From assembly GCF_003790525.1 (NCBI RefSeq), contig NZ_CP033635.1: a DNA stretch of 64,000 bases; one strand, written 5' to 3'. The stretch's first letter is position 1. The number at the start of each line of letters is the position of its first letter. The notes below the pieces were generated by a model. The model had not been told where the DNA came from. It ran no database searches and saw nothing but the letters and a program-made list of their open reading frames with translations. A program made the translations under genes and the position numbers. This document shows, one piece after another, positions 2,056 through 47,930 of the stretch. The DNA is from Escherichia coli (GTDB lineage: Bacteria > Pseudomonadota > Gammaproteobacteria > Enterobacterales > Enterobacteriaceae).

Positions 2056-4946
<2,891 letters not shown>

Positions 4947-5029
4947 CGGATTTTATCCTGTTATCAGTAGGGTAGATGTAGTTGTTATCAGTCGACGTGA
5001 CGGAAAAATGCCGATGCTGAAACGGAATT

Positions 5030-5045
5030 AGGAAACCGGTTTCAC
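5030..5045. promoter_or_regulatory. Perfect palindrome GAAACCGGTTTC; candidate AscG (LacI/GalR-family) operator
   Basis: 12-bp perfect palindrome in the ascF-ascG divergent intergenic region. Confidence 0.5.
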
Positions 5046-5105
5046 AAAATCATGAATAGTTGTCACTAAATAAGCAAGAGAGTTAATTGTTCATTTTTTA
5101 TATTT

Positions 5106-5119
5106 GTGAAACCGGTCAC
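5106..5119. promoter_or_regulatory. Second, imperfect AscG-operator-like site GTGAAACCGGTCAC
   Basis: Near-repeat of the 5032 palindrome about 75 bp downstream in the same intergenic region. Confidence 0.4.
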
Positions 5120-5202
5120 CTGAATATTTTTCCCGCCGATTGCGCAAGGACAATCGGCAAACGGTGCAGTACACTGCGTTGATTGCGTGTAAAGGGATGA
5201 AA

Positions 5203-6216
5203 ATGATGACGACGATGCTGGAAGTGGCGAAGCGCGCCGGGGTTTCAAAAGCGACCGTTTCCCGCGTGCTTTCAGGTAATGGCTACGTCAGCCAGGAGAC
5301 TAAAGATCGCGTGTTTCAGGCGGTAGAAGAGAGCGGTTACCGCCCAAATTTGCTGGCCCGCAATCTGTCGGCGAAAAGTACCCAGACGCTGGGGCTGGTA
5401 GTGACTAACACGCTTTACCACGGCATTTATTTTAGTGAACTACTGTTTCATGCCGCGCGAATGGCGGAAGAGAAAGGGCGGCAGTTGCTATTGGCAGATG
5501 GTAAACACAGCGCCGAAGAAGAGCGCCAGGCGATTCAGTATCTGCTGGATCTGCGCTGCGACGCGATCATGATTTATCCGCGCTTTTTAAGCGTGGATGA
5601 AATTGATGACATCATTGACGCGCACAGTCAGCCGATAATGGTGCTTAATCGCCGCCTGCGCAAAAATAGCAGCCATAGCGTCTGGTGCGATCATAAACAG
5701 ACCAGCTTTAACGCCGTGGCAGAGTTGATAAACGCCGGGCATCAGGAGATTGCTTTCCTTACCGGCTCGATGGATTCCCCCACCAGCATTGAACGTCTTG
5801 CCGGGTATAAAGACGCGCTGTCGCAGCATGGTATTGCGCTCAATGAAAAACTTATCGCTAACGGTAAATGGACGCCTGCCAGCGGGGCCGAAGGGGTAGA
5901 AACGTTGCTCGAACGTGGGGCTAAATTTAGCGTGTTAGTTGCCAGTAACGACGATATGGCGATAGGTGCGATGAAAGCGTTGCACGAGCGCGGCGTAGCG
6001 GTGCCAGAGCAGGTGTCAGTTATCGGATTCGATGATATCGCTATTGCCCCCTACACCGTTCCGGCGCTCTCCAGCGTAAAAATTCCGGTAACTGAGATGA
6101 TTCAGGAAATTATTGGACGGCTGATTTTTATGCTCGATGGTGGGGATTTCTCACCGCCGAAAACCTTCAGCGGAAAACTGATCCGCCGCGGCTCCCTCAT
6201 TGCTCTTTCGCAATAA
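5203..6216 (+). CDS. ascG: LacI-family transcriptional repressor AscG
   Basis: HTH N-terminus (MLEVAKRAGVSKATVSRVL) and periplasmic-binding-like fold. Start chosen at ATG 5203 to match the recalled 337-aa length; ATG 5197 is an alternative. Confidence 0.85.
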   Translation: MMTTMLEVAKRAGVSKATVSRVLSGNGYVSQETKDRVFQAVEESGYRPNLLARNLSAKSTQTLGLVVTNTLYHGIYFSELLFHAARMAEEKGRQLLLADGKHSAEEERQAIQYLLDLRCDAIMIYPRFLSVDEIDDIIDAHSQPIMVLNRRLRKNSSHSVWCDHKQTSFNAVAELINAGHQEIAFLTGSMDSPTSIERLAGYKDALSQHGIALNEKLIANGKWTPASGAEGVETLLERGAKFSVLVASNDDMAIGAMKALHERGVAVPEQVSVIGFDDIAIAPYTVPALSSVKIPVTEMIQEIIGRLIFMLDGGDFSPPKTFSGKLIRRGSLIALSQ

Positions 6217-42803: not shown

Positions 42804-43186
42804 AATTCGGTTACTCCTTTACGAACGTTTTCGATATCGCTTTGCGTACCCATGAGTTCAAAGCGGTACAGCCACGGCACGCCGCATTTCCGGGCAATCA
42901 CATCTCCGGCGCGGCCATATGCCTCACCAAAGTTGCGATTACCCGAAGCAATAACGCCGCGCAGCAACGCCCGGTTATGCTCGTCGTTTAAAAAGCGAAT
43001 GACCTGTCGTGGCACCGCGCCAGCCGTACCGCCGCCGCCGTAAGAGGGCACGATCAGGATGTAAGGCTCGTCTACCTGAATCCGTTCCCGCTCATTGAGC
43101 GGGATGCGCACCGCGGGCAGCCCTAAACGTTCGATAAAACGCTGCGTATTTTCGGAGCTGCTGGAAAAGTAGACGAGCTGGCTCAT
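42776..43186 (-). CDS. nrdI: Flavodoxin-like protein NrdI
   Basis: 136-aa ORF beginning [17 protein letters not shown]. Confidence 0.9.
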
Positions 43187-43428
43187 GCACTGGCCGCGTG
43201 TGGCGCTGGATGCAGACGATTGATCATGTCCGGGCGGAAACCAGACCAGCTAAGATCGCCTGCAATCACAACCGGCAACTGACGAAAGCCCTGAGCACGC
43301 AGCGCTTCTGCCGCTTCAGGAACGCGATCGACATTAATCATTTCAAAATCAAAGCCCCGGTTTTCCATCGCCCGTTTGGTGGCGTGGCACTGAACGCAAT
43401 CGTTACGAGTGTAAATAGTAATGCGCAT
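43183..43428 (-). CDS. nrdH: Glutaredoxin-like protein NrdH
   Basis: 81-aa ORF with the redox motif CVQCHATKR (CxxC). Confidence 0.9.
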
Positions 43429-43636
43429 GATTCGTATTTCCGTTTAAAATGAAGATACGGCGCGATGATACGCGTCGGGTTGTCTCTCTGTTGATACAGA
43501 GATACTAGATGTAGTTGAAAAAAGATTCAACCACACAAGATATGGGAATTTTAGATTGATTACGCCACCGATGAATGGCTCAACGGGGTAGGGGATTTTG
43601 TGTTTTTTTGCCGGGCGAATACCCGGCATCAAGAAG

Positions 43637-44068
43637 TTACATCCGCATGGAAACGGCCAGACGGTTAAAACAATTCATCAGCCCGATGGCAAACGTTAAG
43701 TCGCTGATCTCTGCTGCGCTGAAATGCTCAAGCAAAGGCTGATAAACCTCGTCTTCCGCATGGGTTCTGGCAATTTCGGTTACCGATTCCGCCCATGCCA
43801 GCGCCGCCCGCTCGCGTTCATCAAAATGATGGCTTACGCGCCAACCTGCCAGGGCGTCCAGTTTGTGCTGTGGCACGCCGGATTTGCGCAATGCTTTGCT
43901 GTGCATCTCCAGACAAAATGCGCAGCCGTTGATTTGCGAGACGCGCAAATAAACTAACTCCATCAACGTGGTATCCAGTGTGCTATTTTCCAGTGCCGTT
44001 TTGGCCTGCACTAGTGCGTTATACACTGCCGGGCTAAGTTCGTAGTAAGGCTGACGTAATGTAGTCAT
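43637..44068 (-). CDS. Carboxymuconolactone decarboxylase (CMD)/AhpD-like peroxidase-related protein; no K-12 counterpart at this locus
   Basis: 143-aa ORF with strong AGGAG Shine-Dalgarno; contains GCAFCLEMH (CxxC...H, AhpD-core-like); divergent from the MocR-type regulator. Confidence 0.8.
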   Translation of the reverse strand: MTTLRQPYYELSPAVYNALVQAKTALENSTLDTTLMELVYLRVSQINGCAFCLEMHSKALRKSGVPQHKLDALAGWRVSHHFDERERAALAWAESVTEIARTHAEDEVYQPLLEHFSAAEISDLTFAIGLMNCFNRLAVSMRM

Positions 44069-44099
44069 ACAGTTTCTCCTCTTATTAACGCCCGCAATG

Positions 44100-44120
44100 T
44101 AGCACTATAATGGACTGCTA
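44100..44120. promoter_or_regulatory. Inverted repeat TAGCA-N11-TGCTA enclosing a perfect TATAAT; candidate operator/promoter
   Basis: Located in the 87-bp divergent region between the CMD gene and the MocR gene. Confidence 0.3.
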
Positions 44121-44155
44121 AAGAGAGCCATAAATTACCTAAAAAAGCAGACCAT

Positions 44156-45490
44156 ATGCCGCGCTATCAGGATATCGCCCGTCAGTTAAAAACGGCTATT
44201 GAGCAAGGGGAACTGAAACCCGGCGCAAGGCTGCCTTCAAGTCGTACCTGGTCGCAGGAGCTGGGGGTGTCTCGATCCACTGTCGAAAATGCGTATGCTG
44301 AGCTGGTGGCGCAAGGATGGCTGATCAGGCGGGGACAGGCTGGCACATTTGTCAGTGAGCGGATATATCCGCAACAATCTACTGTACAAGTTGTAGCTTT
44401 TGCCGGTGAAAGTCAGCAACCGTTGCCATTTCAAATGGGATTACCCGCACTCGATCTCTTTCCGCGAGAGCTGTGGGCGCGGGTGATGGGGCGTCGCCTT
44501 CGTACCCAGACGCGCTTTGATTTGGCGTTAGGCGATGTCTGCGGTGAGGCGGCGTTGCGCGAGGCAATAGTTGATTACTTACGCGTTTCACGTGGGATTG
44601 ATTGTCAGCCAGAGCAGGTCTTTATCACTCACGGTTATGCGGCCTCAATAGCTTTAATTCTGCACGCGCTGGCGAAACCGGGAAACGGGATGTGGATAGA
44701 AGATCCCGGCTTTCCACTGATTCGCCCGATTGTCACTCGCCATGATGTGGAAATTTTGCCTGTGCCGGTTGATGACAATGGACTGGATATCACAAGCGGA
44801 ATACAAAATTATCCTGATGCGCGTTTTGCCCTGATAACACCAGCACACCAAAGTCCGCTGGGTGTGGCGCTCTCTTTAGCGCGCAGGCATCAGATACTGG
44901 AATGGGCAGATCGTAGTCAGGCATGGATTATTGAAGATGATTATGACAGTGAGTTTCGCTATCACGGTAAGCCGTTACCGGCGTTGAAAAGTCTCGACGC
45001 ACCGCAGCGGGTAATTTATGCCGGAACATTCAGCAAAGCGCTATTTCCTGCATTGCGCTGTGCGTGGCTGGTGGTGCCGGTGAAGCAAATTGCACAATTC
45101 CGCCACCAGGCGTCACTGGCTCCATGTGCGGTACCTGTTCTATGGCAGAACACACTGGCAGACTTTCTTCGCGAGGGGCATTTCTGGCGGCATCTGAAGA
45201 AAATGCGTCAGCATTATGCTCAACGTCGGCAATGGATTGAGCAAGCGTTGACGCAGCAAGGATTTCAGGTTGTGCCGCAGAAAGGTGGTATCCAGATGGT
45301 GATCAGAATGATAGGCGATGATATTGCCCATGCGCGTAAAGCCAATGCTGCAGGCCTTGCGGTGCAGGCACTTAGCGACTGGCGTATCCGTTCAAGTGGG
45401 GAAGGTGGATTACTGCTTTCGTTTACTAATATCGTTAACGAAGGTATGGCGCGACAGGTAGCACAACAATTACGTAAAGCCTTAAGCTAA
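44156..45490 (+). CDS. MocR/GabR-family regulator (GntR-type HTH fused to a PLP aminotransferase-like domain)
   Basis: 444-aa ORF; N-terminus LPSSRTWSQELGVSRSTVENAYAELVAQGWL is a GntR-type HTH; the remainder is aminotransferase fold-type-I-like. Flagged as absent from K-12 at this position. Confidence 0.8.
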   Translation: MPRYQDIARQLKTAIEQGELKPGARLPSSRTWSQELGVSRSTVENAYAELVAQGWLIRRGQAGTFVSERIYPQQSTVQVVAFAGESQQPLPFQMGLPALDLFPRELWARVMGRRLRTQTRFDLALGDVCGEAALREAIVDYLRVSRGIDCQPEQVFITHGYAASIALILHALAKPGNGMWIEDPGFPLIRPIVTRHDVEILPVPVDDNGLDITSGIQNYPDARFALITPAHQSPLGVALSLARRHQILEWADRSQAWIIEDDYDSEFRYHGKPLPALKSLDAPQRVIYAGTFSKALFPALRCAWLVVPVKQIAQFRHQASLAPCAVPVLWQNTLADFLREGHFWRHLKKMRQHYAQRRQWIEQALTQQGFQVVPQKGGIQMVIRMIGDDIAHARKANAAGLAVQALSDWRIRSSGEGGLLLSFTNIVNEGMARQVAQQLRKALS

Positions 45491-45546: not shown

Positions 45547-45876
45547 TTACGATTTGCGCATGCTTAACAGTGCGCCGATAAAAATACCCACCGCTGCCGC
45601 TGTACCCACACTACACCAGGGTCTTTCACGAACAAAAGAATCCGCGCAGCCAACGGCATCGCGCGCGGCTTGCTGGACGCGAGTACGACCATGCATCCGC
45701 GCCCTGGTTTCTTTCAGTAGAGCCTGCGCTTTACTACGAGCGGCTTCGGCTTCCCCTTTGGCGTCGCTGCACCAGGACTTCAATACAGATTCGAGACTGT
45801 CAGCTAATTGATTGACATCATTCTGGATATCTTGCACGCCATCATCAACGTCGTTGCGGTTCGGTCGGTTAAACAT
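45547..45876 (-). CDS. ygaM: Ribosome-associated DUF883/ElaB-family membrane-anchored protein YgaM
   Basis: 109 aa from the internal ATG, which has a GGGGGA Shine-Dalgarno (the track ORF is 113 aa); C-terminal TM segment. Confidence 0.8.
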   Translation of the reverse strand: MFNRPNRNDVDDGVQDIQNDVNQLADSLESVLKSWCSDAKGEAEAARSKAQALLKETRARMHGRTRVQQAARDAVGCADSFVRERPWCSVGTAAAVGIFIGALLSMRKS

Positions 45877-46027
45877 ATGATCCCCCATTAGAATTCGATG
45901 TAATTTTCAGTGTAGACCATAATTTTCTTAACTGAGGTTCATCGCGGCTTTATGGACTTTTCTGAAAGCGTTGTGAATGCGCAATCAGGTAAGGTAGGCC
46001 CGCGGTTGATAATAACGAGGATCAAAT

Positions 46028-47525: not shown

Positions 47526-47930
47526 ATGTCCGTAATGTTACAAAGTTTAAATAACATTCGCACCCTCCGTGCGATGGCTCGCGAATTCTCCATTGACGTT
47601 CTTGAAGAAATGCTCGAAAAATTCAGGGTTGTCACTAAAGAAAGACGTGAAGAAGAAGAACAGCAGCAGCGTGAACTGGCAGAGCGCCAGGAAAAAATTA
47701 GCACCTGGCTGGAGCTGATGAAAGCTGACGGAATTAACCCGGAAGAGTTATTGGGTAATAGCTCCGCGGCCGCCCCACGCGCTGGTAAAAAACGCCAGCC
47801 GCGTCCGGCGAAATATAAATTCACCGATGTTAACGGTGAAACTAAAACCTGGACCGGTCAGGGCCGTACACCGAAGCCAATCGCTCAGGCGCTGGCAGAA
47901 GGTAAATCTCTCGACGATTTCCTGATCTAA
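47526..47930 (+). CDS. stpA: H-NS paralogue StpA
   Basis: 134-aa ORF beginning [36 protein letters not shown], with the C-terminal [12 protein letters not shown]-binding motif. Confidence 0.9.

Follow-up and report, generated by a model that had tools for sequence, protein, structure and literature searches.

MocR-type regulators have been surveyed comparatively by Suvorova and Rodionov, who reconstructed 825 MocR regulons and found a combination of two direct boxes plus one inverted box to be the commonest motif structure (245 regulons), with a TGG or TGT core in most of the motifs (PMC5320631). PdxR recognizes a site of 48 bp. Its holo dimer grips the two outer, inverted repeats on strongly bent DNA with the help of an A/T tract; in its apo form, the protein binds the three repeats about equally tightly and activates pdxST (PMC10450172). 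The 47-bp site of GabR lies over both divergent promoters; the protein acts as an autorepressor and as a GABA-dependent activator, and the gabT -35 element is situated within the bridging DNA between the GabR boxes (PMC4756830). In both operators, A/T-rich bending tracts matter (PMC10450172, PMC4756830).

Here, we describe the region between a gene for a CMD/AhpD-like protein and a divergently transcribed mocR gene in Escherichia coli. All positions refer to the window, i.e. the whole stretch of 64,000 nucleotides that was analyzed. We consider it probable that the 87-bp spacer between the two genes is a compact divergent control region with a tripartite MocR operator as its core, and that this core is not the short inverted repeat TAGCA-N11-TGCTA that had originally been put forward as a candidate MocR site.

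The CMD-mocR gene pair and its genomic setting

The description of the locus as a CMD/MocR divergent pair around an 87-bp spacer, with which the original prediction had started, agrees with Pfam domains and start codons. The spacer spans positions 44069-44155 and is bordered by two start codons, that of the CMD gene at 44068 (minus strand) and that of mocR at 44156. The CMD/AhpD-like protein matches Pfam family PF02627 at 3.5e-21 in addition to the AhpD core domain TIGR00778, and a CxxC motif (CAFC) is present at residue 49. The regulator combines an N-terminal wHTH domain (PF00392 at 1.4e-17, residues 4-66) with a C-terminal aminotransferase fold (PF00155 at 2.8e-26), which is the domain arrangement of the MocR subfamily. 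Its PLP-binding residues are kept (S293, K294, R301 and EDDYD at 260-264): FSK with K294, R301 and the EDDYD stretch align to S308, K309, R316 and D276 of PdxR, and the wHTH contact arginine is likewise conserved in this comparison.

The two genes form a module between nrdH (43183-43428) and ygaM (45547-45888). The stretch that separates nrdH from the CMD gene is taken up by a 62-aa open reading frame on the minus strand (43444-43632). The Salmonella gene STM2804 appears in the literature as a marker-insertion site of 'no known function' about 5 kb from stpA, and the position of stpA in the window (47526-47930) is consistent with that distance. We take STM2803/STM2804, near stpA and nrdH, to represent the same chromosomal context as the CMD-mocR locus. 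The gene pair is accessory in E. coli. Its intergenic region occurs in 1387 of 5426 complete genomes of the species, that is in about a quarter of them, and in every case it is a single copy on the chromosome. Genomes of the K-12 type give matches to the flanks only and lack the locus. The window is 100% identical in strain SMS-3-5 and in many further genomes. A literature search on the locus and its orthologs returned no binding, footprint, transcription-start or expression work.

Layout and conservation of the control region

The comparison is based on 79 loci from Gamma-, Beta- and Alphaproteobacteria that encode relatives of the regulator with 91% to about 40% identity. Two alignments were used, one of 22 regions from Enterobacteriaceae and one of 59 sites across clades. 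In the former, near-invariant blocks are found at 44076-81, corresponding to the CMD Shine-Dalgarno sequence, and at 44100-44117, 44122-44132 and 44141-44155. The originally proposed repeat is enclosed in a strongly conserved control region of 60 bp, in which a three-box site is flanked by two predicted back-to-back promoter elements. The predicted operator itself is a 46-bp site of fixed geometry (44110-44155) made up of box 1, box 2, an A-tract that possibly acts as an intrinsic bend by analogy with the described operators, and box 3 (Table 1).

Table 1. Coordinates of genes, predicted control elements and compared features; positions are those of the window unless a locus or structure entry is given.
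Feature	Position	Strand or orientation	Remarks
CMD/AhpD-like gene, 143 aa	43637..44068	-	predicted regulated target
Shine-Dalgarno sequence GAGGAG of CMD gene	44076..44081	-	each position 21/22 in Enterobacteriaceae alignment
Predicted CMD extended -10, TGCTACATT = TGn + TACATT	44096..44104 (44104→44096)	-	predicted start near 44089
Originally proposed inverted repeat TAGCA-N11-TGCTA	44100..44120		judged to combine, by chance, pieces of two other elements
TATAAT, predicted mocR -10	44106..44111	+	predicted start near 44118
Predicted operator box 1, ATGGACTGCT	44110..44119	inverted	reverse complement AGCAGTCCAT; ATGG-CT 22/22 in Enterobacteriaceae
Predicted operator box 2, AGAGAGCCAT	44122..44131	direct, 24 bp upstream of box 3	GCCAT 22/22 in Enterobacteriaceae
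A6 tract, between box 2 and box 3	44141..44146		19-22/22 per position in Enterobacteriaceae
Predicted operator box 3, AGCAGACCAT	44146..44155	direct, abuts mocR ATG	CAGACCAT 21-22/22 in Enterobacteriaceae
MocR-type regulator gene, 444 aa	44156..45490	+	GntR wHTH and aminotransferase-like domain
Divergent GNAT-azoreductase-CMD operon	L020 855-2374		
Bacillus clausii PdxR structures	PDB 7PQ9, 7ZLA, 7ZN5, 7ZPA, 7ZTH		pdxR-pdxST divergent region

The same geometry recurs across clades, with ATGGNCTRC at offset 0, the CCA of box 2 at offset 18, an A-rich stretch and then GYAGNCCAT, the CCAT of which is at offset 42. The true repeats are ATGGNCTRC and GYAGNCCAT, inverted with respect to each other and 28 bp apart, joined by a direct copy that has GCCAT at its end; in all clades box 2 reads GCCAA or GCCAT at the same offset. 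Offsets 0, 18 and 42 are fixed in the 59 aligned sites, as is fitting for MocR operators with their two to four repeated boxes, and the ATGG and CCAT cores conform to the TGG/TGT type: alignment columns T16, G17 and C58 are invariant, and A15, A59 and T60 are conserved to at least 90%. The direct boxes 2 and 3 are separated by 24 bp in all clades (about 2.3 helical turns) and the inverted boxes 1 and 3 by 36 bp from centre to centre (about 3.4 turns), distances that are constant across clades but non-integral, where the survey of MocR operators describes boxes spaced by one or several helical turns.

Boxes 1 and 3 pair with each other in 82.1% of the cells of the 59-site alignment versus 21-39% in slid controls. 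Their covariation amounts to 0.234 as compared to 0.158±0.012 in shuffles, none of 500 of which reached the observed value, and a partner-permutation test gave P<1/5000, shared ancestry inflating both covariation statistics. Double changes are seen at the level of clades, where CTGC/GCAG is replaced by CTAC/GTAG or by CTTA/TAAG. Judged from these patterns, boxes 1 and 3 are to be read as a co-varying inverted repeat of 9-10 bp, and boxes 2 and 3 as direct repeats.

A weight matrix of 62 bp was built from 28 directly divergent loci and the window's own site. Its top match lies just upstream of mocR and reaches at least 10 bits in 35 of 51 held-out loci; 16 have no such top site at this position, nine of them none in the entire locus. 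As background, 2 of 964,482 positions attain 10 bits. The window contains a single operator site with 82.3 bits, the next best position scoring -4.3. The site recurs beside orthologous mocR genes in three proteobacterial classes. In Enterobacter sp. ENT03 (L079, 2501-3806), the mocR homolog is detected by tblastn in two overlapping segments (residues 4-244 and 234-443), suggesting a frameshift or a pseudogene, though the operator is intact (75.7 bits).

For the CMD gene, the minus strand offers a predicted sigma-70 extended -10 element consisting of TGn followed by TAnnnT and with its conservation concentrated on T-12, A-11 and T-7; the segment that holds it (44096-44105) is referred to as box 0 below. 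In Enterobacteriaceae, T-15 and G-14 are present in 20/20 sequences, position -13 is variable, and the hexamer shows T-12 in 19/20 and both A-11 and T-7 in 20/20. A pattern TAnAnT is met at a fixed offset from the operator in 41 held-out loci that were chosen by boxes 1-3 only and stem from genomes with 42% AT (A-11 40/41, T-7 33/41, A-9 29/41, T-12 28/41). In many clades the start codon of the target, preceded by a Shine-Dalgarno-like sequence, is 26-30 nt away from the -10 hexamer. A GC-rich discriminator, GCGGGC (44090-44095, minus strand), is located between the CMD -10 and the predicted start in the window and is variable in other Enterobacteriaceae. E. coli has a second candidate -10 on the minus strand, TATAGT (44109→44104), which was demoted as the signature across clades favours TACATT with its TGn.

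On the opposite strand, TATAAT shows T1, A2, A5 and T6 in 20/20 sequences from Enterobacteriaceae, with either A or G at position 4. Conservation of this hexamer was not seen outside that family, and it is the likely mocR -10 within Enterobacteriaceae only. The mocR -35 is weak (TATTAA or TTATTA at 44082-44088) and that of the CMD gene is poor as well. A consensus promoter/terminator scan of 43950-44300 returned nothing at threshold and no full -35/-10 pair, so that the promoter calls are drawn from conservation patterns only. Readings of the spacer as giving rise to a leaderless mRNA or as carrying a sigma-54 promoter were dropped by eye, with no matching elements present. In E. coli, mocR has no recognizable Shine-Dalgarno sequence upstream (AAAAAAGCAGACCATATG, 44141-44158). 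In 27 of 58 related loci (e.g. L005, L006, L008 and L020), the ATG within the CC-ATG of box 3 is an in-frame, stop-free mocR start, which adds N-terminal extensions of 5-29 codons relative to the E. coli protein.

About 65 of the 79 loci have a CMD gene in linkage with this MocR. In Pseudomonas and elsewhere outside Enterobacteriaceae, mocR often diverges from a GNAT-azoreductase-CMD operon that encodes a GNAT acetyltransferase and a flavodoxin-like azoreductase in addition to CMD. Two orphan copies of the operator are present, one preceding a GNAT-azoreductase operon (L066, 29 bits, 3986-5212) and the other a CMD gene (L048, 16.8 bits, 3897-4495). Neither is adjoined by a mocR start and in both the box 0 side faces the target, from which it follows that the operator should serve the target promoter as well as that of mocR. 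Together, the GNAT, azoreductase and CMD targets and the orphan sites suggest a small redox/detoxification regulon.

Competing readings of the conserved elements

The best surviving alternative concerns box 0, which might be a fourth regulator box in a -> <- -> -> motif rather than the CMD -10. With respect to the AG in box 2 and the AG in box 3, its TAG/AG is at distances of exactly 24 and 48 bp, it resembles the distal portion of box 3 (TAGCA versus AGCAG; TTAGG versus CTAGG), and four-box motifs of this very structure are on record for 19 MocR regulons (PMC5320631). However, the CCAT core is absent from box 0, and the positions conserved in it are those expected for a sigma-70 -10 on the target strand (T-12, A-11 and T-7, joined by TGn in Enterobacteriaceae). 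It also does not covary with boxes 1 and 3, as exemplified by loci L005 and L008-L010, and its distance to the target start codon is fixed at 26-30 nt. We therefore regard a fourth box as unlikely and prefer to see the segment as the predicted extended -10 of the CMD promoter.

The repeat formed by boxes 1 and 3 could, as a second possibility, act in RNA, as a hairpin in the mocR leader that sequesters the start codon and exerts translational control in place of a DNA operator. The arms do co-vary and are paired in the minimum-free-energy fold, the start codon adjoins the 3' arm or lies within it, and the lack of an upstream Shine-Dalgarno sequence in front of E. coli mocR would also fit. Yet there is nothing special about the folding energy of the putative leader (z = -0.73, matched by 49 of 200 shuffles), an Rfam search gave no match, and cells that cannot pair occur in the middle of the stem (columns 18/57 in 17/59 and columns 19/56 in 23/59 sites). 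The arm sequences, with ATGG/CCAT and the GntR-type TGG core, are conserved beyond what pairing needs. Moreover, the 5' arm overlaps the predicted mocR -10 and +1 and would thus not be transcribed from that promoter, and the orphan sites are without an adjoining mocR start altogether. These points favour a DNA site over an RNA element, and a hairpin as the actual function of the repeat appears very improbable to us.

Just as little speaks for the idea that the DNA site is the footprint of another DNA-binding protein, be it a global or a neighbouring regulator, and not of the adjacent MocR. Conservation by itself names no binder. On the other hand, the site accompanies mocR in three proteobacterial classes, in fixed orientation and abutting the start codon; its architecture and TGG core fit the MocR/GntR norm, and changes in the boxes follow clade-level changes in the recognition helix. 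Here, position 41 (S/A/T versus G) correlates with box bases (CAGA versus TAGG), a correlation that is weak because it is largely clade-level and has exceptions (L026, L068, L073 and L014). The occurrence of the locus in 1387 of 5426 E. coli genomes makes a core-genome regulator an unlikely owner. A foreign binder would come as a considerable surprise, and the adjacent MocR is the probable binder of the site.

This leaves the originally proposed repeat, according to which a regulator dimer would sit on a 21-bp palindrome centred on the -10. Its elements are exactly where they had been placed: TAGCA at 44100-44104 and TGCTA at 44116-44120 are separated by an 11-bp spacer and surround TATAAT at 44106-44111 as a perfect 5+5 inverted repeat. 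The left arm is well conserved in Enterobacteriaceae, and non-enteric sites show pairing in another register (TAGG-N10-CCTA; -3 slide, 59.7%). Such repeats are, however, to be expected by chance. In sequences of the same length and composition generated by mononucleotide shuffling or by a first-order Markov model, 1.4 and 1.7 perfect inverted repeats with 5-bp arms and spacers of 0-20 are expected per 87 bp, respectively, and the probability of at least one is 0.67-0.71. Across orthologous regions, where the repeat should have been conserved, it is not: it is intact in 8/22 regions from Enterobacteriaceae and in 8/59 sites overall, and compensatory changes were looked for in both sets with none seen. 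In L005, boxes 1 and 3 change together and TAGCA remains as it is. In the 59-site alignment, the two arms are complementary in 50.8% of the cells versus 31-60% in slid controls, which do as well, the -3 slide even better.

The two arms also differ in their fate. Among the 22 Enterobacteriaceae regions the right arm decays (T22 G20 C15 T13 A15) and the left one is conserved, because TAGCA on the minus strand reads TGCTA, that is the TGn plus TA of the predicted CMD extended -10. An invariant TG, a variable n and an invariant TA suit such an element better than a half-site. The right arm in turn is the poorly conserved tail of box 1, and the entire repeat is a by-product of two unrelated conserved elements. 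As the operator, TAGCA-N11-TGCTA is scarcely credible. What stands is the more general notion attached to it, that the operator lies across a -10 element in an autorepression-type layout: the last two bases of TATAAT are also the first two of box 1, and the predicted mocR leader is covered by boxes 2 and 3 as far as the start codon, so that this notion holds, as a prediction, for the three-box operator and has to be given up for the TAGCA/TGCTA repeat.

Regulon context and comparison with PdxR and GabR

A link between orthologs of the regulator and the CMD gene has been predicted before. Table S2 of the 2016 survey lists a regulog 'Spro_3719 - Enterobacteriales' with the members STM2803, CKO_04020, KPN_03002, Ent638_0497, ECA2654 and Spro_3719, and gives COG2128/PF02627 as its only predicted target (Suvorova and Rodionov, 2016). 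This group resembles the E. coli locus in being an enterobacterial MocR with a COG2128 target, a likeness that concerns regulator and target. An E. coli member is missing from the regulog because K-12 does not have the locus. The entries name PA0268 and blr6977 as sister groups of Spro_3719, and COG2128, COG1182 and PF00583 as targets of PFL_2191 (Suvorova and Rodionov, 2016), a set that matches the GNAT-azoreductase-CMD loci found here in Pseudomonas. The regulator-target link is thus already computationally predicted in RegPrecise (Spro_3719), which presumably holds a motif for this regulog as well.

The name of the regulator deserves comment. In newer RefSeq/PGAP records it reads 'pdxR: MocR-like pyridoxine biosynthesis transcription factor PdxR', and the protein indeed scores 407.1 bits with NCBIfam NF052282 (PdxR), above the cut-off of 320. 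In the neighbourhoods of the 79 loci, no linked pdx genes (pdxST, pdxK) were seen, although such linkage would be expected for PdxR, and this conserved neighbourhood without pdx genes renders the name doubtful. The regulog assignments of the 2016 study place orthologs of the regulator in the non-PLP group Spro_3719 (Suvorova and Rodionov, 2016). PdxR is probably an over-annotation here, the conserved target being no vitamin B6 gene but one for a redox protein of the AhpD/CMD family.

By analogy with the two characterized systems, a single MocR dimer would wrap about 46 bp of the control region, as GabR and PdxR do on their sites of 47-48 bp. Counted from the predicted start of mocR (about 44118), the boxes would cover -9 to +38, so that any bound form should block transcription of mocR. 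Counted from the predicted start of CMD (about 44089), box 1 would be at -21 to -30, within the spacer, box 2 at -33 to -42, where the -35 is missing, and box 3 at -57 to -66 (about -62). Binding in a direct-repeat mode to boxes 2 and 3 may then activate CMD, and an inverted-repeat mode involving boxes 1 and 3 may leave it non-activated or repressed. Given these box positions at both promoters, the regulator probably toggles CMD between modes with the help of a PLP-linked effector, in an effector-dependent two-mode switch after the published PdxR model. We infer that mocR is autorepressed and that an effector governs how CMD is controlled; for the sign of regulation as well as for the two-state switch, the assumptions are taken over from PdxR and GabR and not from the locus itself. 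A still broader picture would be that MocR/CMD(-GNAT-azoreductase) constitutes a widespread PLP-dependent stress/detoxification regulon governed by an amine/carbonyl-driven, PdxR-like switch (inverted repeat off, direct repeat on) with a post-transcriptional layer where box 3 meets the start codon; this is conceivable but has to be considered tentative and, taken as a whole, rather doubtful.

The result replaces a spurious operator call by a base-resolved map of three predicted boxes, an A-tract and two predicted -10 elements, and, by comparison of loci, it illustrates with unusual clarity how a MocR operator can extend over both divergent promoters. Its value is modest, and knowledge of how MocR regulators work is unchanged by it.

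Of the regulators with solved structures, PdxR from Bacillus clausii (7PQ9) is the closest relative of the E. coli protein (E = 9.5e-63), with which it has the four PLP-binding residues and the contact arginine of the wHTH in common. Its operator is like the predicted E. coli site in that it measures about 48 bp, occupies a divergent spacer and comprises two repeats in direct and one in inverted orientation. The box sequences differ, and the E. coli target belongs to the AhpD/CMD family, in contrast to pdxST or pdxK. E. coli synthesizes PLP via the DXP-dependent route. GabR from Bacillus subtilis is more distant from the E. coli regulator than PdxR (E = 2e-54). It, too, is of the MocR type and its site overlaps both divergent promoters, with the operon transcribed divergently (gabR-gabTD). 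GabR recognizes two direct ATACCA repeats 34 bp apart, with a bridge of 29 bp and a proposed inner inverted box, whereas in the E. coli site the outer inverted repeat is the strongest pair and a third, direct box is added. Seen against these systems, the control region between the CMD gene and mocR is an ordinary example of the known MocR operator design.
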